Positions 1 to 11,992 of a stretch of 11,992 nt of DNA are shown here, one piece after another. Each line of letters begins with the position of its first letter. The first letter of the stretch is position 1. Below the pieces are notes generated by a model. It was not told where the DNA came from. It did no database searches and saw only the letters and a program-made list of their open reading frames with translations. The DNA comes from Thermoplasmatota archaeon (GTDB lineage: Archaea; Thermoplasmatota; Penumbrarchaeia; Penumbrarchaeales; Penumbrarchaeaceae): NCBI GenBank assembly GCA_965234725.1, contig CBDDUX010000107.1:1-11992 (forward strand). The letters are read 5' to 3'. The translations under genes were made by a program, and so were the position numbers.

Positions 1-349
1 TGGTCTCCTCGGCCAAGGTAGGTGTTGACATAGATTTCTTCGGGTTTGGCACTCTTTTGAAGAATACACCTTTATACTTCAGATAAGAGTAGATCGCCTT
101 GAACTCTGAAACGATGTATGATGGGGTTCTACCCTTTCTCTGTTCCTCCTTCGCAAACTCCATCATCTTGTCATATCGATCCTCGGTACTTAGTTCAATA
201 ATGCTCTGAGGTGTCTCGTTCATCCAATCAAGAATGGCGGATACTCTCCTGATATATGTGGTGGCAGTGACCTCCACTCCGGAGTAAACCATCTCCCCGT
301 ACCAGCCTTTGATATCCTTATCCTTCAGCATCTCTTCCACAATGGTCAT
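1..349 (-). CDS. Tyrosine recombinase / site-specific integrase, N-terminal (core-binding) part; partial, continues past the left edge
   Basis: Hand translation from ATG 349: MTIVEEMLKDKDIKGWYGEMVYSGVEVTATTYIRRVSAILDWMNETPQSIIELSTEDRYDKMMEFAKEEQRKGRTPSYIVSEFKAIYSYLKYKGVFFKRVPNPKKSMSTPTLAEET..., 116 codons with no stop. The pattern D..WY......TA..Y.RR....TP.....G...SYI....KA..S.L......TPTL.EE resembles the N-terminus of archaeal (Thermoplasmata/Nitrososphaeria-type) integrases as I recall them. The catalytic R-H-R-Y residues would lie outside the window. It is adjacent to an att-like site. Confidence 0.75.
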   Translation of the reverse strand, partial: MTIVEEMLKDKDIKGWYGEMVYSGVEVTATTYIRRVSAILDWMNETPQSIIELSTEDRYDKMMEFAKEEQRKGRTPSYIVSEFKAIYSYLKYKGVFFKRVPNPKKSMSTPTLAEET

Positions 350-370
350 AAGGTGGGTGATGGGCCCCTT

Positions 371-380
371 CTATATATGA
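371..380 (-). promoter_or_regulatory. Candidate archaeal TATA box for a leaderless integrase transcript
   Basis: Minus strand reads TCATATATAG, ending about 22 nt before the ATG at 349. There is no SD-like sequence between the two. Confidence 0.4.
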
Positions 381-409
381 ATTGCTATGGCCCGTGCAAG
401 AAGTTGTAT

Positions 410-427
410 AAGTCCGGACGGGCCCAC
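410..427 (+). repeat. att-like site, copy 1: tRNA 3'-end fragment AAGT-CCGGA-CGGGCCC-A-C (13-bp core at 415-427)
   Basis: Parses as tRNA positions 57-74: T-loop 3' half AAGT, T-stem strand CCGGA, acceptor strand CGGGCCC, discriminator A, first C of CCA. No 5' tRNA body lies upstream. It sits 60 bp from the integrase start, and its core is repeated at 1984-1996. Confidence 0.7.
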
Positions 428-436
428 AAATTTTGT

Positions 437-1048
437 TTATATATCTAATATCCTGACCGTGAATTCCCTTGTCTTTCTGTCGAATCTTTTCGAAAGATCA
501 AGAGCCTTCTTTCCATCTAGCTCCTCAATATACATGTCATCGATTAATGAAAGTATTACATTCTCCTTTGCATACCGATTTCTCGTGATCCTGACATAGA
601 TCAGATCAAGCAGAGCCTTCTCTGGTTCAGCAACCTGGACCGTTCCCTCAATTTTAAATCCCCAAAACAGGGACCTTTTGATCTGATGGTATTCAAAGAT
701 ATCGTCGTCACTTCGGTAAGTATGTGGAAGCTTTGTCGTTACCATCGTATAGGTGTGAACATCCTGACTCAGGATGCCATGCCTGGAAAGAGCATACTCC
801 ATGGAAAGATAGCTAGGAGCCCTGAGAACCATAGATAATTCCTCGGAATTTGGTGTATTGAAGGGATTTTTGTACCAGCCTTTGATCGGATTCTCAACCA
901 ATCCAGACCTTGACAATCTTGAGAGTTGAACGGAAATGGTTGACGTATTCTCACCGGTCAGGACCTTGATATCGTTCAATGAGAAGATCTTCTTGATGGG
1001 ATGTTCCCTGAAGAAATCCATCCATTCATTGACCTTCAATGTCATCAC
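437..1048 (-). CDS. abiEi: Type IV toxin-antitoxin system AbiEi-family antitoxin (N-terminal winged HTH)
   Basis: wHTH-like N-terminus (FSLNDIKVLTG...LSRLSRSGLVENPIKGWY) and family motifs PSYLSMEYALSRHGILSQ and VAEPEKALLDLIY. Overlaps the abiEii stop. The start is uncertain: GTG 1048, ATG 1045, or TTG 1039 (well spaced after the SD-like GGAGAGTGA). Confidence 0.9.
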   Translation of the reverse strand: MMTLKVNEWMDFFREHPIKKIFSLNDIKVLTGENTSTISVQLSRLSRSGLVENPIKGWYKNPFNTPNSEELSMVLRAPSYLSMEYALSRHGILSQDVHTYTMVTTKLPHTYRSDDDIFEYHQIKRSLFWGFKIEGTVQVAEPEKALLDLIYVRITRNRYAKENVILSLIDDMYIEELDGKKALDLSKRFDRKTREFTVRILDI

Positions 1049-1859
1049 TCTCCATGGGTCCTTTGAATCCAGAAATGAGTTCGATCACGGAAATAAGGAT
1101 GTCATTGTAAATCGGCCTGTAACTATCAAGAACCTGTTTTGGAAGGAACCGGTCCATTTCATTGGAGAGGATCGAGATACCATCTACCTGGATCTTCTTT
1201 TTGATCTTTTCATATCTAACCACGATCTCATTGACATTTTCATTGTAATCATCGATCTTCTTAATAACAAGACCCATATCCAATTCTACTGATCTCTCTG
1301 AATTCAGGAAATAAATGTCCCAGAGGTCCCTACCTTTCAGGAAGGGCCTGTAACCAAGAGCTCGAACTTTATCTGCAAGGATCTCCTCTTCGTCCTCAAC
1401 TCTCACAGCTGGTTGATAGGGGGGGAAATTTAGGATCTTCGGACTATTTTTATATGAAGGTACATCTGCGATCTCGATATGGACCCTAATGTTCTGCCTG
1501 GGATCCTCGGAAATGGTCTTCAATATGTATCTCTGTAGTTCATGTTCATTCTTCTGAACCTTCACTTTCACATTCTGCAGGAAGGGAAATGTATCAAGAC
1601 AGGTCCGTTCCATAGTGGCCATGTATTTTGACAGATCAAAGTAATCAATTCCTTCTTTCAATACAAGATCAATATCTTCTGAGAACCGTGGATTGCCATG
1701 GAATAATCTAAGAGCGGTTCCACCATGAAATACGATATCATCAAAGCATCCATTTCTAGATAAGGATGTTAGTATCGCTTTTTGCATCTCTTCTTGATAT
1801 ACACTCTTGACACGCGCATCCAACATCCTGGCCAACGCTTCGATCTCAGCCCATTCCAT
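1026..1859 (-). CDS. abiEii: AbiEii/AbiGii-family nucleotidyltransferase toxin (DUF1814, Pol beta superfamily)
   Basis: Motifs VFHGGTALRLFHGNPRFSEDIDL (GGT...R.S.D.D), EILADKVRAL and KGRDLWDIYFL. SD-like GAAGTGA 5 nt before the ATG. Confidence 0.93.
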   Translation of the reverse strand: MEWAEIEALARMLDARVKSVYQEEMQKAILTSLSRNGCFDDIVFHGGTALRLFHGNPRFSEDIDLVLKEGIDYFDLSKYMATMERTCLDTFPFLQNVKVKVQKNEHELQRYILKTISEDPRQNIRVHIEIADVPSYKNSPKILNFPPYQPAVRVEDEEEILADKVRALGYRPFLKGRDLWDIYFLNSERSVELDMGLVIKKIDDYNENVNEIVVRYEKIKKKIQVDGISILSNEMDRFLPKQVLDSYRPIYNDILISVIELISGFKGPMESDDIEGQ

Positions 1860-1983
1860 TCATATCACTTCATTTTATTAACAAATATGCATAAGATATC
1901 AAGTCATATATCAACGTTTTGGTTCCATTGCTCAGCAACCATGTAAAGAACGAGGCGATACAACAGGACCATTAATGCGGACT

Positions 1984-1996
1984 CGGACGGGCCCAC
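1984..1996 (+). repeat. att-like site, copy 2 (CGGACGGGCCCAC)
   Basis: Identical to 415-427. It is 11/13 GC within an AT-rich intergenic region between divergent genes. Confidence 0.65.
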
Positions 1997-2063
1997 TATG
2001 AATATTCTAACTTTCACACACCCGTAAAAAATTACTATTATCTTCAAACAATAGTTGAATAAC

Positions 2064-4298
2064 ATGAGAAGGACCTTGCTTGTTTTATCAATCGTTATTA
2101 TCTTCCTTTCCTCATCGATTCCAGGTTGCTTGAAGAAGGCAGATGACGAGGGGGAAATCGTTGAGGATACTTTCATTTTCGAACTCGATGAAAAGAATAT
2201 CGAGGTCCGATTCTCGGTCTCGGATGGTATGATAAGGACCTATGAAAAAGGTGAATGGAAGGAGGTCCTTGTAAAGGGTGTAAATCTCGGGATGGGAAAA
2301 CCAGGATACTTTCCGGGAGAAGCGGCAATTACAAAGGATGAATATGCAAGATGGATAGAACAGATAGGGGAAATGAATGCCAATACTATCAGGGTTTATA
2401 CAATACACCCCCCCGGTTTCTACGAAGCTCTTAATGAATATAATGAGAGATCAATGGATCCAATATACTTGATTCATGGAGTATGGTTGAATGATGAGAC
2501 ATATCATTCTCATCCTTCAGTATTCGAGGATACCATTGAAAATGAGTTCAAGGACTCCATGAAATTAGTGGCCGATGTAGTACATGGAAACGTCGTTATC
2601 GAGAAAGAACCGGGTCATTCCCACGGACAATTTACCGCTGATGTCTCGAAATATCTTATGGGATACATTATCGGAGTGGAATGGGATCCTATTGTTGTAT
2701 CAACAACCAATGATCTTGAAGAAGGTCACATTGATCAGCATGGTAAATACCTTGATACCAACAATGCGTCTCCATTCGAGATCTGGCTTGGAGGTATGAT
2801 GGAGCATATCATCGATTATGAAACAGATGAATATGGACAACAAAGACCTGTCAGTTTCGTCAACTGGGTAACCACCGATAAACTCAGCCACCCTAGTGAA
2901 CCACTGCAGGATGAAGACCTTGTATCCATCGATCCGGATAGGATAACATCCACAGAGGACCATTTTCCAGGCCTTTTCGGGTCCTATCAAATCTATCCCT
3001 ACTATCCTGATCTCTTGAATTACGACAGGAATTACACCAATTATATTGATCATAGAGGTGAAAGGAACAGTTATGCCGGATATCTGAACGATCTGAGATC
3101 ATCGCATGATATTCCACTCCTGGTAGCAGAGTTCGGGATCCCATCATCAAGGGGAATGACGCACAGGAATGTCAACGGATTGAACCAGGGGAATATGACC
3201 GAAGATCAGCAAGGGGAAGCCCTTGTCCACATGTTCGAAGATATCATCCATGAAGATTATGCAGGTGGCATCCTATTCTCCTGGCAGGACGAATGGTTCA
3301 AGAGGACCTGGAACACCATGGACCTGATGGACCCTGACAGGAGACCCTACTGGCATGATGTTCAGACATGCGAGCAGAACTTCGGATTGCTCTCCTTTGA
3401 CCCAGGTGGCTCAACAAGAATATTGATAGACGGCAGATCGGATGATTGGTACGGATTGCCATCCGATGAAAGGACCTTTGGAGATATCGACCAAGGTCCT
3501 GCAAGCAGGTTAATGATAACAAGCGATGAGACCTATCTATACATAGGTATGGAGTTTCAAGATGGGTCCATTGACTGGGAGGAGGAATCGTTCCATATCT
3601 ATCTCGATACGGTGGATGGAATGGGTATAACAACACCGAATGATGATAAGATATACTTCTCATCTGGAATGGAATTCCGGATTGATATCCAGGATCGTGA
3701 TGGGTCCAAAATAATGGTGGACAGCCATTATGATATGTTTTACTATCAGTATGCAGAAGAACTGTCCATGATGGATGAACTTGAATACCCAAAGCAACCC
3801 GATAACGGGATCTTTCATGATATCCACTACTGTGTCAACAAGCCGACATACCTGCCTGAGCAGGAGGTCCTTCTACCGCTGGACAAGTTCGATACCGGTC
3901 ATCTGAAATGGGGAAATTCGGATCCAATATCTCCGTATTATGATTCCAATGCGGATATACTTGGACCAGGAGAGGACCCTATCATCGAAATGAGGATACC
4001 ATGGCTGCTTCTTAATTTCAAGGATCCTTCCCGGAGGATGATAACAGGAGATATCTGGACCGACGGGTTGAAGGCAGAGGTCAAAAAAGATGGCATTAAA
4101 TTCGCTCTGGTGACGCATACCAAAGAAGAAGGAAAAATTTTGATAAGTTCTACCTTTCCCGAGAGGAAAAACGATCAGATCGGATCGGATGACATGCTGC
4201 TTCATTCCTGGGAGGAATGGGACCTGCCAATTTATCATGAAAGACTGAAGACATCTTACAATATTGTCAAGGACTGTTTAGCTGATCAACCTCGTTGA
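2064..4298 (+). CDS. Lipoprotein with a putative clan GH-A (beta/alpha)8 glycoside hydrolase domain and a C-terminal beta-sandwich (CBM9/DOMON-like) domain
   Basis: MRRTLLVLSIVIIFLSSSIPG-C is a signal peptide with a lipobox-like Cys. Barrel motifs: KGVNLG, ANTIRVYT, IIGVEW (candidate acid/base Glu), LLVAEFG (candidate nucleophile), GGILFSWQDEW, EQNFGL. IDGRSDDW...SDETYLYIG marks the sandwich domain. The ORF track starts at TTG 2055; ATG 2064 is preferred. Substrate unknown. Confidence 0.72.
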   Translation: MRRTLLVLSIVIIFLSSSIPGCLKKADDEGEIVEDTFIFELDEKNIEVRFSVSDGMIRTYEKGEWKEVLVKGVNLGMGKPGYFPGEAAITKDEYARWIEQIGEMNANTIRVYTIHPPGFYEALNEYNERSMDPIYLIHGVWLNDETYHSHPSVFEDTIENEFKDSMKLVADVVHGNVVIEKEPGHSHGQFTADVSKYLMGYIIGVEWDPIVVSTTNDLEEGHIDQHGKYLDTNNASPFEIWLGGMMEHIIDYETDEYGQQRPVSFVNWVTTDKLSHPSEPLQDEDLVSIDPDRITSTEDHFPGLFGSYQIYPYYPDLLNYDRNYTNYIDHRGERNSYAGYLNDLRSSHDIPLLVAEFGIPSSRGMTHRNVNGLNQGNMTEDQQGEALVHMFEDIIHEDYAGGILFSWQDEWFKRTWNTMDLMDPDRRPYWHDVQTCEQNFGLLSFDPGGSTRILIDGRSDDWYGLPSDERTFGDIDQGPASRLMITSDETYLYIGMEFQDGSIDWEEESFHIYLDTVDGMGITTPNDDKIYFSSGMEFRIDIQDRDGSKIMVDSHYDMFYYQYAEELSMMDELEYPKQPDNGIFHDIHYCVNKPTYLPEQEVLLPLDKFDTGHLKWGNSDPISPYYDSNADILGPGEDPIIEMRIPWLLLNFKDPSRRMITGDIWTDGLKAEVKKDGIKFALVTHTKEEGKILISSTFPERKNDQIGSDDMLLHSWEEWDLPIYHERLKTSYNIVKDCLADQPR

Positions 4299-4420: not shown

Positions 4421-6205
4421 ATGGAGAACAGACACCTTGGCCGAATGATCCTTGAAAAAGGAACAGAGTTCCCGGATCATCCCACAATGAAATGGAAGGA
4501 AAATGGTGAATGGAGGTCCATTTCCTACTCTGAACTCTCAAGAAGGATCCTGAATATCGCTTCCAGTTTGAAGAAACTGGGGATAGAACATGGGGATCGG
4601 GTAGGAATATTCTCTGATAATCGACCTGAATGGTCCATAGGGGATTTCGCGATACTCGCAATAGGAGGGACTACGGTTCCCATATATGCCACAAGCACCT
4701 CAGATCAGGCTGGTTATATCGTTAAAGACTCTGGTTGCAAGGCGATAATGATAGGATCCAGGCAGCAGTATGATGATATCTTCCATTTCAGAAAGGAACA
4801 GGACCTGATCGTGATATCGTTCGAGGAAGAACCCTCACCCGGTACCATCCCATTTAATGACCTCTGGAATAAGGATACCAATGACAAGGATCTCATGAAT
4901 CTGAAAAAGGAACTTTCCGGTTTTGGGTCAGAAGAGCTGGCAACGATAATCTATACATCTGGTACAACCGGTGAACCAAAAGGGGCCATGCTGACACATT
5001 CCAACCTATTCCACCAGATAGATACTGTGGATGCCTATTTCGATGTGGGACCGGAAGACAGGTCCCTCTGTTTCCTTCCTCTCTCCCATGTTTTCGAAAG
5101 GTCCTGGTCCTATTTTATATTCCATTCAGGTGCCGTTAACCACTACATGGAGGATCACAAACTGGTGAGAGAATACATGGAAGAGGTCAAACCCACGGTG
5201 ATGGTCTCTGTTCCCAGACTCTTCGAGAAGATCTATTCCGGTGCCAACGAAAAATTGAGGAAGGCCTCTCCCCTTAAAAAGATCATGTTCAGGTGGTCCA
5301 TGGGTGTCGGAAAGGAATATCATACCATGAGAACCGAGGGAAAGGAACCAGGGTCCATCCTTTCCTTGAAATACAAGCTTGCTGACAGACTTGTCCTTTC
5401 AAAGCTAAGAACGATCGTGGGAGGGGATAAGAAGTTCTTCGCATCGGGTGGAGCACCACTGTTGAAGGAGATCGGAGAGTTCTTCCTTTCAGCAGGGGTC
5501 CTTGTCTGTGAGGGATACGGCCTGACCGAGACCTCGCCGATCATATCCTTCAACAGGCCCACCGATATCAGGTTCGGAACCGTCGGAAAAACCGCTCCAC
5601 TGGTAGAGGTGAAACTGGGAAAGAACAATGAGATCCTGGTGAAAGGACCCAATGTGATGAAAGGATACTGGAACAAATCCGAATTGACAGAGGAAGCATT
5701 TATCGATGGATGGTTCAGAACTGGAGATGTCGGAGAGTTCGATGATAAAGGGTTTCTAAAGATCACCGATAGGATAAAGGACATTATAATCACCTCGAAT
5801 GGAAAGAACATAGCCAGACAAAGAGTGGAGCTTATGATCGGAAAGGACCATTATATAGAGCAGATCATGGCGATAGGGAACAACAGACAGTTCCTTTCTG
5901 CTCTTGTTGTTCCATACTTCGAAGCGCTTGAGGAATATGCAAAGGAAAAAGGTATCTCTTTTACTTCCAGAGATATGTTAGTTAAGAAAAAAGAGATCAT
6001 CGAGTTCTATAAAAATAGGATAGATGCGGTCCAGAAGGACCTTGCCCATTTCGAACAGATCAAGAAATTCACACTACTGTCTGAAGAATTTTCCCAGGCA
6101 GCTGGAGAGATAACACCTACCCTGAAGAACAAGAGAAGAGTGATCATGAAAAGGTATGGTGACCTGATCGAGAATATGTATTCATCTTCCTCAGCTTCAA
6201 ATTGA
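4421..6205 (+). CDS. fadD: Long-chain-fatty-acid--CoA ligase (AMP-forming, FAA1/FadD15 type)
   Basis: P-loop IIYTSGTTGEPKG, FLPLSHVFER, EGYGLTETSP, GWFRTGDVG, ITDRIKD and C-terminal GEITPTLK. SD AGGAGA 6 nt upstream of the ATG. Confidence 0.93.
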   Translation: MENRHLGRMILEKGTEFPDHPTMKWKENGEWRSISYSELSRRILNIASSLKKLGIEHGDRVGIFSDNRPEWSIGDFAILAIGGTTVPIYATSTSDQAGYIVKDSGCKAIMIGSRQQYDDIFHFRKEQDLIVISFEEEPSPGTIPFNDLWNKDTNDKDLMNLKKELSGFGSEELATIIYTSGTTGEPKGAMLTHSNLFHQIDTVDAYFDVGPEDRSLCFLPLSHVFERSWSYFIFHSGAVNHYMEDHKLVREYMEEVKPTVMVSVPRLFEKIYSGANEKLRKASPLKKIMFRWSMGVGKEYHTMRTEGKEPGSILSLKYKLADRLVLSKLRTIVGGDKKFFASGGAPLLKEIGEFFLSAGVLVCEGYGLTETSPIISFNRPTDIRFGTVGKTAPLVEVKLGKNNEILVKGPNVMKGYWNKSELTEEAFIDGWFRTGDVGEFDDKGFLKITDRIKDIIITSNGKNIARQRVELMIGKDHYIEQIMAIGNNRQFLSALVVPYFEALEEYAKEKGISFTSRDMLVKKKEIIEFYKNRIDAVQKDLAHFEQIKKFTLLSEEFSQAAGEITPTLKNKRRVIMKRYGDLIENMYSSSSASN

Positions 6206-6797: not shown

Positions 6798-9710
6798 GTG
6801 AATAATTTGACAAATATCACCAGAAGGATAAACCTTGCAATTACAATAATGTCTTTGATAACACTTCCTTTTATTATATCCATTAATGGTCATGATGATT
6901 ATTCAGAAAAGGAATCAGATGTAATAATTGAGTATTTGGAAATAAAGGTCCCAAGCATCGCAGCTGATATGAATGGGAATGTTTTCATAAGTCATTCATA
7001 CATGATGAACGATGTTGCAAGAACATACAAGATCTTTTTTGATAGATCCCTTGATGGTGGTAACACATTCAATAAAGGGGGGATGATACAATCCAGTTAT
7101 TACGATGACACCTATAATGGTAAGCTTTATGTTGATAATAATGGGATTATACATTGTTTTTACGAGATTCAGAATCTATTAGAGGATAGAAGATTGGGAT
7201 ATGCTAGATCGAACGATCACGGTGGGAGTTTTATTGGTAAGCGAGATGTAAATACAGATAATGCTTTTTTCCCTGGACATGAATTTGTTGTTTTTGATAA
7301 TAATATCTATCTTCTTACAAGAATGGGGGGTGGACAATCATATTCTTACTATCTGCATGTATCAAGGGACCTTGGAAAGACATTCGAGGACCCGGTAGAA
7401 ATGGGTATTTCTCATGGATATCATATTGATGTTGACATTTATGGCAATGTATACATTCTTAACAACACATACGAAAACAGTTGGCTAACAATTTCCTATG
7501 ACAACTGCACAACTTTCACTGAACCACTACTTGTATGCTCAGACCCATATCTTTCAAGAAGAGCATTTTTCAGTGTAGATGGAAATAAAAAAGTCCATGC
7601 TATTTGGCCCCACGGAACGGAAGATAAAACTTATTATGCATCCAAGGGTCCTGAAGATGATGCTTTTTCAGAGCCTGTAATAATGTTCAATGACCTCTTG
7701 AACGATACCAGGATAGAGACAGATCATTGGGGAGGAATATATGTTGTATGCTCGATTCCTGACACACAAGGAAATAATGAGATATATCTGATATATTCAA
7801 ATGATGGGGCCAATTTTGAGGACCCGGTTCAATTGAACGACAATACAATGGATGACCAAAGGAATCCCGCTATATCGTATGACGGACGAAATGGTATCCA
7901 CATCATCTGGAGAAGGCCTGGAGAAGTGTATGATGGTGGTCTGTACTACACTAACCTTCTTATCGGTGATCATCCACCAGATCAAATAAGAAAAATTCCC
8001 GAGGTCCATATTGATGAGGATTCTATCGATTTCACACCTACTTTAGATCTTAACTACTATGTATTCGATGACATGGGAGAGGAAGGTATGCATTTCAATG
8101 TCGAGGATACAAGCAACGCAGGAACCATGAAGGTATATGTTGATAATGGATTCCTTGAATTTGAACAGATCATCGAACACTGGTACGGTAAAGCAGAATT
8201 TTCCATATCATGTCATGATGAAGGAAAGGATGGGATTGAAGGAAATTCGGATGACAATTATATTGATCTTGGTGAATTCACATTGATAGTAGAACCTACC
8301 GATGATCCACCTGAGATCGACACGATCGGAGATTTCAATATCACTGGTGAATTTTCTTCAATTGATGTTTTTGAGGACATGAGATACAATCTTCCAATCA
8401 ATACCATTGAATATGATGATGAAGAGTGTGAATTGATCCTTTATTCAGCAAGTCCTTTTATTACACTTGATAGATTAAATCAATCCCTGAGGATTGATCC
8501 ATTGAAAGACTTTATAGGAACAATGAACATCTCACTGATGATAACTGATATTAATGGTTCTTCGATACTCTATAACATCACATTCAATATTTTGAATGTA
8601 AACGATCCACCAATGCCCTATGATGATTCACTGACAATCTCCATGAATGAGGATACTGTAAATGAAGCATGGAATATTGGTTCCATGTTCTATGATATTG
8701 ACAGTGACAAGCTTGAATTCAGTTGCATTGGCTCAGAAAATATTAAGGTAGTTCAGGGTGAGGACCTAGGATTGAGAATAATTCCTGATCAAGATTTCTA
8801 TGGTAGCGAGAATATTACTCTGATATCCTCTGATGGAGAAAATACAACAAGTTGCCATGTGCTCGTAATAGTCTACCCTGTAAATGACGCCCCTGTCAAC
8901 AATGATTTTACTTACGATATAGATGAAAATAATACCTGTAAGGTTACCCTTAGAGCCAATCCCGGATATGATATTGATAGTATAAATTTCACCTATACAT
9001 GGTTGATCGATGATTCATTTACGTTGGTGGGCCAGGTGATAGAACATACTTTTATTGAATCTTTTTCCGAGAGGAAATATAATGTTATTATGACGGTATC
9101 AGATGGTGATCTGATATCTTTACCAATTAATCATACTGTTACCATACCTCCTCATCGGATCGAGAATAATCTACCGGATGATCAAAATAATACAGATGGC
9201 AATATCACGGACAATAATGGAAAAGATATATCAAATGGTGAAGAAGATGAAAAAGATCTTGGCCAGATGATTATCCTTCTGTTAATTTCACTCATCATTC
9301 TAATGATCATCTCTTTTATATTGATCTTTATGATCATTAGGATAAAAAAGAATGTTCCAGTTAATGTCCATAAAGATAAGGAGATTGATGGTATAATCAA
9401 GGGAGAACCTGATGATGATCTAATTCTCAACAGTCTTCATCAATCTCCAATAAATCCTGAACAAGAACAGACAGGTTCATTTGATCAAGTAGAAAATGAG
9501 ATGGTGGAACAGTTTGGACAGAACCTAGACAATACTTTTATGAATGGATTGAATACACAAGAATTTGAGAGTCCTTCTGAGGTTGAACCATCAAATGAAA
9601 AAGAAGTTATTGAACAACCCAAACCAGATGATGAAACCTATCTTCCCTCACCAGACGATGAAATAAAAGAAGTTCAAGATCTTAGTTTGGATGAGATATT
9701 TTCTCCTTAG
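6798..9710 (+). CDS. Membrane-anchored cell-surface protein: Asp-box (BNR/sialidase-like) beta-propeller, cadherin-like/tandem Ig repeats, PKD-like domain, TM helix, acidic tail
   Basis: N-terminal hydrophobic signal; Asp-boxes SLDGGNTF, SNDHGGSF, SRDLGKTF, SYDNCTTF, SNDGANF; repeat linkers GDHPP, PTDDPP, NVNDPP, PVNDAP; PKD-like YTWLID...MTVSDG; TM helix MIILLLISLIILMIISFILIFMII followed by RIKK; ~120-aa acidic tail. The true start may be TTG 6807, 5 nt after GAGGTGA. Confidence 0.85.
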   Translation: MNNLTNITRRINLAITIMSLITLPFIISINGHDDYSEKESDVIIEYLEIKVPSIAADMNGNVFISHSYMMNDVARTYKIFFDRSLDGGNTFNKGGMIQSSYYDDTYNGKLYVDNNGIIHCFYEIQNLLEDRRLGYARSNDHGGSFIGKRDVNTDNAFFPGHEFVVFDNNIYLLTRMGGGQSYSYYLHVSRDLGKTFEDPVEMGISHGYHIDVDIYGNVYILNNTYENSWLTISYDNCTTFTEPLLVCSDPYLSRRAFFSVDGNKKVHAIWPHGTEDKTYYASKGPEDDAFSEPVIMFNDLLNDTRIETDHWGGIYVVCSIPDTQGNNEIYLIYSNDGANFEDPVQLNDNTMDDQRNPAISYDGRNGIHIIWRRPGEVYDGGLYYTNLLIGDHPPDQIRKIPEVHIDEDSIDFTPTLDLNYYVFDDMGEEGMHFNVEDTSNAGTMKVYVDNGFLEFEQIIEHWYGKAEFSISCHDEGKDGIEGNSDDNYIDLGEFTLIVEPTDDPPEIDTIGDFNITGEFSSIDVFEDMRYNLPINTIEYDDEECELILYSASPFITLDRLNQSLRIDPLKDFIGTMNISLMITDINGSSILYNITFNILNVNDPPMPYDDSLTISMNEDTVNEAWNIGSMFYDIDSDKLEFSCIGSENIKVVQGEDLGLRIIPDQDFYGSENITLISSDGENTTSCHVLVIVYPVNDAPVNNDFTYDIDENNTCKVTLRANPGYDIDSINFTYTWLIDDSFTLVGQVIEHTFIESFSERKYNVIMTVSDGDLISLPINHTVTIPPHRIENNLPDDQNNTDGNITDNNGKDISNGEEDEKDLGQMIILLLISLIILMIISFILIFMIIRIKKNVPVNVHKDKEIDGIIKGEPDDDLILNSLHQSPINPEQEQTGSFDQVENEMVEQFGQNLDNTFMNGLNTQEFESPSEVEPSNEKEVIEQPKPDDETYLPSPDDEIKEVQDLSLDEIFSP

Positions 9711-9747: not shown

Positions 9748-11919
9748 TCAATATTCTTTCTTTCTATTCTTCAAAGATATCACAAGAAACACTATCAAAA
9801 AGAGCACTAAAACAAACATGACCAATACTGAAACAGAGAGAATTATAAGTATTATTTTTTCATTTTTTTGATCTTCTCCTTTTTCCTCCACCTCGATTTC
9901 TCTCTCCTTTGGTCGGATTGTTATTTCCTCTGAGGTCATCACAAATTTCCCCTGGCTATCTGTAACTTCAAGGGTTATTAGATGATCTCCATAGACCAAT
10001 TTTGAAAGTGGAAGGTATTTACCAGTTCCAAGAAAACCTGTAATATTGGATGACCAGACATATGTATGATCATCGGAAAGGATCGAACATTCAAGGTCTA
10101 TGTCAACACATTTCCCGGTGAGATTCAAGGAATTATTCTCATAGAAAATGTTGGAATCCTGAGGAAGCTCGATAATTGCTTCAGAGGGGGGATCATTTAC
10201 ATTATGCACTTCTATAACGAATTTTCTTGTAACACTGAAAAATCCATCATCTATTGTCATATTGAAAATATGAAATCCAACTTTATCATTTTCAGGGTAT
10301 AAAGATAGAGCTCCAGTTCCTTGACTGAATAATATCCATTCCGGAATATCATTTGAATAGAATTCTATCGGCTCACCATCTACATCTGTTATATTGATCC
10401 TGAACTGATAGGTTTCATCCTCATTTAGATGATAATGTATGTGTTCACCAAAGAAATCGTCGACAATAACCCCATTGAATACTGGAGGGTCATTTACAGG
10501 AGAAACAGAAACCGAGAAGATATTGCTCAATACCCAAACATTTGATTCGTTCTTCAACTTAATCTGGAATTTAAGTTGTCCATTCCAGTCTTTTTCCAAC
10601 TGTTCAAAATCAAGTTTTGTTCCATTTATGATACATTTTAAAATCATTTCATTTTCCATGTAATGAACTTGAATTTCTACATTATCGCTCCGATCCAGAT
10701 TATAATGACCCAAGGCATCAATAAGTCCAGAACCGTTTCCAGAGTCCTCCTCAAATGATATATTTTTTATTGGAACATCGCATTTTAAGAATGGAGTCAA
10801 TGTCACCGATAGGTTTCCTGATAGATCGGGGAACATCGTTTCATTGTAATGTTCGAAACCATCTTTCCAAACTAATACCCTATAGGGTGATGAAGAAACT
10901 ATCTCACCCAGATCTTTGCAATCATGATCATCATTCAGATCTTGATATAAAATGGAATGAAATTCAATCCATCTTATTGAGGACATTGGTGGTAATGTTG
11001 TATCAAGCAGGACATTGCCAAAGTTGTCTGAAATGTTAACAGATGCACCCTCTACCGGCTCTTGATTAATGTCCATTAACTTCAGGTATAGATCATCAAT
11101 AACGTATACTTTTGAATTATTACGCTCAATTGATATATTATCTCCGTTTATGTAAGTATCATCCAGGAATGCTTTTGAATATCTGAGTGAAAGCATTCCA
11201 TCTTTTCCCACTAATTTAGATCTCTCAAGGTTTGCAATGGTATTGGAGAGTGTAATAGCATAACCATCTGATGCCCTGATATCAACATCTCTAAAAACAA
11301 TATCATCCCCTCCGTATGAAGAGATCCCCTGCCCAGATTCCATTGTGATATTCTCTATCATAGTTTCATCATTGAACCAACCAGCTATACCTCCAAAATG
11401 GGAACATATGAAAACATTCGAAATTGTTGCTCCACTTACCTTGTTCATTACAATGGATGTTGACGCGTGTTCGATAATGCAATTATCAATAATTGTAGAT
11501 GAACATGTCTCATCCAATTTGATACCACTCCAGTGGCTTGGCCAGTATTCCGGCCAATCACCCTCAGGGTCTTGAGTGAATTTTATAGGTTCTTCTGGTG
11601 TCCCATCAGCAATCAAAGTGCCTCTGATTTCCAATCTTGCAAGGGCAAGGAATTTAATAACCTTTCCAGGAGAAATTGTAAGAGAATCCGTTTCTTCAAT
11701 AAAAACAGGATTTCTGATCAGATAACAGCCATCTTCCCTGGTCACGATACCATTCGAGTTTTCAACCATGTATTCAAGATCTATTTCTAAAAGGGAATTT
11801 GGAGTGTAATATGCTGCGCGTGTCATAGAAGAAATATTTTCCTCTGAGTTTACAGGTGATAATAACAAAAGTGATGAAAATATAAACATGCTCAAAATTA
11901 TTAAAACATGACTCCTCAC
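9748..11919 (-). CDS. Membrane-anchored cell-surface protein: right-handed parallel beta-helix (pectin lyase-like fold), beta-sandwich, cadherin-like repeats, PKD-like domain, C-terminal TM anchor
   Basis: LEIRGTLIADGTPEEPIKFT...WSGIKL...IIDNCIIEHA is a typical beta-helix start. Also EPVEGASVNISD (carboxypeptidase-regulatory-like sandwich), PVNDPP/NVNDPP linkers, YVWSSNITGFLGTG...HLITLEVTDSQG, and a TM helix followed by KNRKKEY. GTG 11919 follows GGAGGA by 6 nt and gives a clean signal peptide. The ORF track uses 11955, and the frame stays open to the window edge. Confidence 0.85.
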   Translation of the reverse strand: MRSHVLIILSMFIFSSLLLLSPVNSEENISSMTRAAYYTPNSLLEIDLEYMVENSNGIVTREDGCYLIRNPVFIEETDSLTISPGKVIKFLALARLEIRGTLIADGTPEEPIKFTQDPEGDWPEYWPSHWSGIKLDETCSSTIIDNCIIEHASTSIVMNKVSGATISNVFICSHFGGIAGWFNDETMIENITMESGQGISSYGGDDIVFRDVDIRASDGYAITLSNTIANLERSKLVGKDGMLSLRYSKAFLDDTYINGDNISIERNNSKVYVIDDLYLKLMDINQEPVEGASVNISDNFGNVLLDTTLPPMSSIRWIEFHSILYQDLNDDHDCKDLGEIVSSSPYRVLVWKDGFEHYNETMFPDLSGNLSVTLTPFLKCDVPIKNISFEEDSGNGSGLIDALGHYNLDRSDNVEIQVHYMENEMILKCIINGTKLDFEQLEKDWNGQLKFQIKLKNESNVWVLSNIFSVSVSPVNDPPVFNGVIVDDFFGEHIHYHLNEDETYQFRINITDVDGEPIEFYSNDIPEWILFSQGTGALSLYPENDKVGFHIFNMTIDDGFFSVTRKFVIEVHNVNDPPSEAIIELPQDSNIFYENNSLNLTGKCVDIDLECSILSDDHTYVWSSNITGFLGTGKYLPLSKLVYGDHLITLEVTDSQGKFVMTSEEITIRPKEREIEVEEKGEDQKNEKIILIILSVSVLVMFVLVLFLIVFLVISLKNRKKEY

Positions 11920-11992
11920 AATTCTTCCTCCAAAAGTGTAGGTGGAAAGGCTCACAACATCGTTTACCTTTTCATTTTGATGTTTTTGGCTC

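Follow-up and report, generated by a model that had tools for sequence, protein, structure and literature searches.

Can a defence cassette that lacks a recombinase of its own settle at more than one tRNA gene in archaea? The question is raised by the left end of an 11,992-nucleotide stretch of DNA from a Thermoplasmatota archaeon (GenBank assembly GCA_965234725.1, contig CBDDUX010000107.1), which we call the window (G000:C107:1-11992, where G000 is the source genome, C107 the contig, and window position 1 is contig position 1). There, an AbiE toxin-antitoxin (TA) pair lies between two short direct repeats, beside the truncated gene of an integrase that we call IntB. The original prediction, made from the letters of the window, had read this arrangement as a tRNA-anchored, integron-like system that stockpiles small defence cassettes. 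Its observation was confirmed and its interpretation is supported in part: the tRNA-bounded cassette and the stacking of units stood, the likeness to an integron and the defence stockpile did not. What we describe is an archaeal AbiE cassette without an integrase that forms part of a stack at a tRNA and occurs at two different tRNAs; tRNA cassette islands are already known in bacteria. The explanation that we favour, with a probability of roughly 0.58, is that elements stacked at a tRNA gene and that the recombinase-less AbiE cassette was moved by an integrase encoded elsewhere.

An intact AbiE pair between copies of a tRNA-Pro tail

The 13-mer CGGACGGGCCCAC occurs on the forward strand at 415-427 and 1984-1996. 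The window holds no further match even with two mismatches allowed, two or more matches arose in none of 200 dinucleotide shuffles of it, and the count in the whole assembly (3,535,829 bases) is two, both in the window. The 1,569-bp stretch from repeat to repeat contains abiEii, abiEi and a leader only, without a recombinase; 9 bp (428-436) separate repeat 1 from the abiEi stop, and the 124 bp upstream of abiEii span 1860-1983. Coordinates, contents and spacings had thus all been given correctly, and the proposed count of further copies found none beyond these two.

The AbiEi-family and AbiEii-family (DUF1814 nucleotidyltransferase) genes are adjacent and both intact, and Pfam and PADLOC searches bore out the predicted cargo as a complete abiEii-abiEi pair. 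The toxin gene abiEii lies upstream of abiEi with a 23-nt overlap, and its translation holds GGTAL followed by EDIDL. Both intact families and the overlap of the genes recall the AbiE type IV TA systems. In the studied bacterial AbiE systems, however, the antitoxin gene stands before the toxin gene, whereas the order is toxin then antitoxin both here and in G015, one of the related genomes described below.

A tRNA search of the window itself found none. ARAGORN identified 40 tRNAs in the G000 genome, and its only tRNA-Pro(CGG) (C75 c[80,156]) ends ...TTCAAATCCGGACGGGCCCA. Among the 40, this tRNA alone has the tail ...AAATCCGGACGGGCCCA, which matches copy 1 over 14 nt (413-426) and copy 2 over 12 of its 13 bases. 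Both repeats are 3'-end fragments of tRNA-Pro(CGG), in keeping with the proposal that they derive from the 3' end of a tRNA.

Two further observations concern this tRNA. The tRNA-Pro genes of the compared relatives (loci L016-L044) end CCGGGCGGGCCCA or a near variant, and an A at that tail position (CCGGACGGGCCCA) was seen only in the tRNA-Pro(CGG) of G000 and in one tRNA-Val(GAC) of G012; an inserted element may have rewritten the G000 tail. The first 27-29 nt of tRNA-Pro also recur at a distance of 130-170 nt upstream of the gene, at times as two consecutive copies (G000:C75:288-316, G004:C14, G022:C313 and G002:C62), and stacking may occur on the 5' side as well.

The same cassette at a tRNA-Met in other genera

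We compared positions 1-2400 of the window by blastn with loci holding AbiEii relatives. Positions 413-1995 aligned with contigs G015:C74 and G021:C198 over 1586 nt at 89.7% identity; outside this block the sequences are unrelated. In both contigs, the left border of the unit reads TCCGGCCTGGCCCAC and the right border CTCGGCCTGGCCCA; this is the tRNA-Met(CAT) tail, and in G015 the unit is the last of four (225, 185, 229 and 1570 bp) behind tRNA-Met. The two contigs are 99.6-100% identical over 3.4 kb, though binned in two genera; they are probably one organism's DNA binned twice, or the trace of a very recent transfer, and we counted them as a single instance. In G007, a 1625-bp unit of 73% identity is bounded by CGGCCTGGCCCA, again repeats of the tRNA-Met tail. 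The right terminus GGACTCGG together with the core is common to G000, G015/G021 and G007.

Content and termini that stay the same at a different tRNA and in another genus argue for movement of the cassette as a unit. The homology spans the interval between the repeats exactly, as expected for the discrete unit that had been proposed, and on this comparison the cassette would have travelled without a recombinase of its own. Metagenome contig L124 (72%) has a Met-type core at the left, its right side lying beyond the contig, and contigs from three runs of other studies (cold seep, marine sediment), which cover 432-1938 only at about 90%, have the Met-type left junction. At E <= 1e-20, AbiEii was detected in 6 of 37 genomes from the class and in none of the four others from the window's genus. 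Between genera it is 89% identical in amino acids; for a neighbouring chromosomal gene the figure is 62% within the genus. In a survey of 20 genome and 41 metagenome AbiE loci, tRNA-like repeats were confined to the closest clade.

These data bear on a different account, in which the AbiE pair is an inert, immobile remnant of an older and larger island, kept by TA addiction and pushed distally by later insertions. We consider this rather unlikely. Decay predicts arbitrary deletion end-points, whereas the same 1.57-kb content and termini recur at another tRNA in other genera (90% and 73%) with homology stopping at the repeats, and the distribution is patchy, with no AbiEii in the four other genomes of the same genus. 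A remnant would nevertheless explain why the contigs hold no evidence of mobility, why the cassette has neither arms nor a hairpin like those of the neighbouring element, and why the searches of G007 and G015 turned up no IntB-family integrase; the distal displacement of older elements is moreover the published pattern of tRNA islands in the accessible text of one preprint (bioRxiv 10.1101/2020.12.28.424599).

The right junction in G015 runs directly into a 56-codon fragment of aTrm56 (PF01994; L061 6202-6369). The fragment begins where intact genes read ...GACCTCGCCCATTTCAAC..., a core-like sequence, and an intact trm56-HD gene lies elsewhere in both metagenome-assembled genomes (MAGs), G015 and G021. 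From these sequences, the junction looks like the product of recombination at a core-like secondary site. Genes near the G015 array code for glutamate dehydrogenase, a PPDK-like protein and an FG-GAP protein; no recombinase occurs within about 6 kb of it. A 428-amino acid (aa) open reading frame (ORF) near the array was considered as an integrase and ruled out, as it is the glutamate dehydrogenase.

An integrase-bearing element beside the cassette

The integrase-like ORF at the left edge, IntB, starts at 349 on the reverse strand and runs off the window after residues 1-116. A copy with 97% amino acid identity (G000:C30:2-349) opens its contig at the same position; near-identical fragments at the start of both C107 and C30 indicate that the assembler broke within a repeated gene. 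Full-length paralogues of 421-425 aa on C55 and C66 are 47-48% identical to the fragment, and more distant ones lie on C56 and C97, the C97 copy directly behind tRNA-Arg(TCG). In four full-length paralogues, GLRP, RPY(V/I)LR, MMGH and RYT are invariant. A profile built from them (n=4) matched Pyrococcus XerA 4A8E (E 2.2e-5), with GLRP, RPY(V/I)LR, GH and RY lining up with its catalytic residues (Arg, HxxR, His and Tyr). Pfam PF00589 gave no match in the three paralogues scanned (E <= 1 or <= 0.001) and matches a more distant homologue on C68. Among 2,916 candidates, 342 were homologous to the IntB family at E <= 1e-10, several of them labelled 'site-specific integrase' by their sources and a few of them with PF00589. 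The full-length paralogues are predicted to be divergent tyrosine recombinases, and both the paralogue profile and the homologues identify the left ORF as an N-terminal domain from an integrase family of the tyrosine-recombinase type, in agreement with its first reading as integrase-like.

Homology between C107 and C30 spans positions 1-427, with unrelated sequence beyond, and the C30 core TCCGGCTTGGCCCAC is the tail of tRNA-Ile(GAT) on C2. Because the homology runs up to the repeat (427), where C30 has a tRNA-Ile tail, repeat 1 is in the first place the right junction (attR) of the IntB element, whose integrase gene starts 66 bp to the left and reads inwards. The reverse complement of a 19-nt arm of this element (385-403) sits 5-6 nt past tRNA-Ile(GAT) on C2, a site that is the matching left end of the paralogous C30 element. 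The two are thus sister elements that occupy different tRNAs, and in each of them inverted arms surround a core matching its own tRNA.

The tRNA-Pro(CGG) gene can be followed across a join between contigs C75 and C56 (2.9 kb) with a 55-nt overlap. A 425-aa integrase, IntA, encoded on C56, begins 57 nt past the tRNA, which is therefore occupied by another element. C56 and C107 do not overlap, so a single stack in the order tRNA, IntA element, ..., IntB element, repeat 1, AbiE, repeat 2 is one that we infer.

How the cassette may move

Under the stacking explanation, the first 2 kb of the window would be the far end of a series of elements inserted successively at the 3' end of tRNA-Pro(CGG). 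We infer that an integrase encoded elsewhere moved the cassette: a tyrosine integrase would excise and insert it, either in trans or as a passenger of a neighbouring element, by acting on tRNA tails of the form TCCGG-NNN-GGCCCA. The cores of the IntB-type elements and of the cassette (Pro-CGG, Ile and Met) all have this form, a class that comprises 6 of the 40 tRNAs; the numbers are small, and the shared class fits one enzyme family. The three variable bases would come to match a new tRNA after insertion at a mismatched site and subsequent re-excision. The AbiE pair would retain the cassette by addiction and may abort virus infection.

Several results weigh against this account. In G000, G015 and G007, both repeats carry the three variable bases of the local tRNA, which speaks against a simple one-step integrase reaction because one step gives one local and one imported copy. 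In phage lambda, the saf (site-affinity) route of re-excision and re-insertion would equalise the overlap copies; the cassette could by analogy resemble lambda attP saf variants, in which an element acquires the overlap of its new target after mismatched secondary-site insertion and re-excision. A search of five genomes detected the IntB family in one and yielded no member in G007 (96% complete) or G015 (79% complete), both of which hold the cassette, and no integrase lies near the cassette loci of G015/G021 or G007. By eye, the cassette ends bear no likeness to the arms of the IntB element, and folding gave no significant hairpin at repeat 2 (z = +0.26 and +0.43). No excised circle, empty site or joint was found in the assembled (Logan) contigs of four runs, which are unable to show rare forms, and these contigs did not extend C107 to the left. 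C107 is unconnected to the tRNA-Pro locus (C75-C56) in the assembly. Independent instances are few (G000, G015/G021, G007 and the one-sided L124), and L122, an AbiE locus of 74% identity, has no tRNA-like repeat.

Synteny yielded no readable empty site either: in G003, the homologue of the gene at 2055 adjoins tRNA-Val(CAC), not tRNA-Pro. In favour of the stacking explanation, a 156-bp unit behind tRNA-Pro is precisely present in G023 and absent from G014, a member of the same genus (loci L020/L018), and the flank is identical past the repeat. The longest inverted matches near repeats 1 and 2 are 5-7 nt.

Local bases in both repeats (G000, G015 and G007) are also what one would expect if a casposase-like or other transposase had duplicated 12-13 bp of the tRNA tail as a target site. 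Two Cas1-family genes exist in G000, C106:688-1533 and C59:27-896; between the latter, at the start of its contig, and the 3' end of tRNA-Leu(CAG) at c[2370,2456] lie about 1.1 kb, and the locus is a possible casposon. Casposons of a Thermoplasmatota relative reportedly insert at tRNA-Pro with 14-15-bp duplications. Even so, we hold target-site duplication to be very unlikely. Casposons and minicasposons have inverted termini and a fixed 14-15-bp duplication, whereas no terminal inverted repeats were seen by eye on the cassette and the repeats are 12-13 nt long here and 12 to about 22 nt across array units. In all three genomes the right repeat opens with CTCGG instead of TCCGG, and part of the 'repeat' therefore belongs to the cassette. 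Finally, at the trm56 junction the opposite side does not carry the other half of the gene.

Arrays behind other tRNAs of the genome

The tRNA-Pro tail is one of many that recur in G000. For 27 of the 40 tRNAs, the last 13 nt have extra copies in the genome, some of these counts including isoacceptors that share a tail; reversed 13-mers gave 0/40, 5' 13-mers 10/40 and internal 13-mers 3/40. Between consecutive tail copies lie 26 units of 113-261 bp, along with four larger units that contain genes. The latter encode a ParE-like toxin with a DUF7557 protein (1296 bp, C89), a SAM methyltransferase with a 110-aa ORF (1488 bp, C28), an FG-GAP protein (3488 bp) and a 751-aa membrane protein (3039 bp), and none of the four contains a recombinase. 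Stacks of repeat-bounded units are thus common behind the tRNAs of this genome, in line with the suggestion that repeated integration builds tandem arrays. The idea of a defence stockpile was overstated: most units are small (113-261 bp) and non-coding, and TA modules occupy two of the five gene-bearing units.

The ParE unit (G000:C89:18164-19538; L051 3627-5000) repeats the layout of the window, with a gene start 64 nt to the left of a tRNA-Val-type core at the contig end, then the TA unit and a second core. As a second mobile example it failed, with relatives matching piecewise only (the TA genes over about 500 nt, further segments each on their own). Beyond its tRNA-Ala part, the methyltransferase unit has no relatives.

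The 26 small units fall into recurring types behind different tRNAs, each with the local tail (for example C20:24656-25430, C109:20622-21128 and C5:2574-3006), and behind tRNA-Arg(GCG) a 143-bp unit occurs four times in near-identical form. Many tail copies are succeeded by 3-5 trailer bases and an AT-rich loop of 22-24 nt, then by the trailer's complement and an inverted tail, together a hairpin of 19-25 bp. The trailer bases covary between loci (L061 = G015:C74 8354-8579; L016-L044). One type of small unit has ATGATGA/ATGATTA and CTGA-like boxes with a conserved stem before the tail copy (C38:77446-77662, C31:30883-31046 and C109:20622-20783), which by eye recalls archaeal C/D-box RNAs, and another holds the inverted T-loop box GGGATTYGAACC; neither type had an Rfam match.

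Such features raise the alternative that tail copies are functional RNA ends, belonging to tRNA-linked small-RNA genes with a tRNA-like 3' processing helix, and that the AbiE flanks are two relics of these. An inverted match of at least 8 nt within 90 nt accompanies 32 of 92 tail copies (0/92 in the reversed control), and this, the recurring types with conserved hairpins and the covariation of the 3-5 trailer bases all suit such genes. The AbiE unit, however, has no inverted partner, its genes lie on the opposite strand and its homology block stops at the repeats; Rfam searches of the window and nine related loci returned only tRNAs or sub-threshold noise. We regard this as the least probable of the explanations considered for the cassette; it could suit the small units while failing for AbiE.

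A wider proposal is tentative, and we lean against it: tRNA-anchored capture may be general in this archaeal family, with almost any tRNA tail a docking site at which re-targetable tyrosine integrases of about 430 aa stack, in trans, short structured units that are non-coding alongside cassettes of one or two genes (AbiE, ParE, methyltransferase, surface proteins). If true, this would be a functional analogue of the integron in which the tRNA tail takes the role of attI.

Comparison with known systems

The closest parallels are bacterial. In additive flexible genomic islands and tycheposon islands, cassettes are added at tRNA genes, each with a directly repeated piece of that tRNA, according to the accessible portions of two reports (PMC7771536; bioRxiv 10.1101/2020.12.28.424599); the second, as far as its available text goes, reports that insertions follow one another at a single tRNA and that partial tRNAs lie scattered. 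Docking at the 3' end of a tRNA, displacement of older units outwards, partial tRNA repeats at unit ends and exchange between genera are likenesses to those islands, in so far as these texts describe them. The present case differs in its Thermoplasmatota host, in a 1.57-kb two-gene TA cassette without integrase or replication module, in the occurrence of the same cassette with repeats of two tRNAs, and in an array whose units are mostly non-coding and 113-261 bp long.

The cassette also resembles the cis-mobilisable elements (CIMEs) and the accretion-mobilisation of streptococci: it shares its att repeats with a neighbouring integrase-bearing element, stands in tandem with it and contains no recombination genes. 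[quoted passage not shown] That repeat 1, as the internal junction, is of the local type speaks against cassette and neighbour having arrived as one composite.

With integrons and CALINs, which are clusters of attC sites without an integrase, the locus has in common a row of small recombinase-less cassettes, mostly of one or two genes, beside a tyrosine recombinase gene, and TA modules are typical cargo of integron cassettes. The locus nevertheless lacks the hallmarks of an integron, and the AbiE cassette system is not one. Neither cassette end has an attC-type palindrome or hairpin, docking is at a tRNA tail, the integrase family is not IntI (weak N-terminal XerD/XerA-type matches), and the AbiE cassette has its own leader, with genes oriented to face the integrase side.

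More distant AbiE pairs (44-45% aa identity) in other Thermoplasmata MAGs present a separate picture. They are flanked by direct repeats of 55-80 nt that lie 1539-1857 bp apart (L071 2395-3988, L079 3356-4968 and L076 2733-4669), and the repeat of L071 and L079 holds GTTGAAC and a short stem. These pairs may be integron-type cassettes with attC-like repeats.

Among open-access texts, we found no paper describing arrays of this kind in archaea, Thermoplasmatota included. The locus would stand as a clear example, in archaea, of a defence or addiction cassette that hops between different tRNA genes without a recombinase of its own, and would extend gene gain by 'additive islands' from marine bacteria to sediment Thermoplasmatota. 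The change of the three core bases with the target offers a concrete handle on how integrase targets drift. In practice, the arrays break assemblies at tRNAs and can resemble partial tRNA genes.

Features of the window

The coordinates of the IntB element, the cassette and the first gene beyond them are collected in Table 1.

Table 1. Positions of the cassette, its neighbouring element and the adjoining chromosomal gene in the window
Feature	Position	Strand	Basis or remark
IntB, N-terminal 116 codons	2..349	-	Truncated by contig end; weak Phage_int_SAM_1 and XerD/XerA N-terminal matches
19-nt arm CTATGGCCCGTGCAAGAAG at right end of IntB element	385..403	+	Kept in C30 paralogue
Repeat 1: tRNA-Pro(CGG) 3'-end copy; attR of IntB element and left boundary of AbiE cassette	413..427	+	tRNA identity, homology breakpoints
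abiEi (antitoxin/regulator), 203 aa	437..1048	-	PADLOC AbiEi 1.9e-31; NCBIfam TAA_AbiEi 1.5e-10 (below cut-off)
abiEii (nucleotidyltransferase-type toxin), 277 aa	1026..1859	-	Pfam PF08843 1.3e-26; PADLOC 3.7e-45
Cassette leader/promoter region, 124 bp, ending in conserved right terminus ...GGACT	1860..1983	-	Within homology block
Repeat 2, right boundary of AbiE cassette	1984..1996	+	Exact 13-mer; G015/G021 homology stops at 1995
Flanking chromosomal gene, 747 aa, weakly GH113-like, outside element	2055..4298	+	Homologues in 5/40 relatives

Further to the right, the window encodes an AMP-binding enzyme (4421-6205) and two large secreted or surface proteins (6798-9710 and 9748-11991), the latter two with cadherin-like, Big_9, PKD and beta-helix domains.

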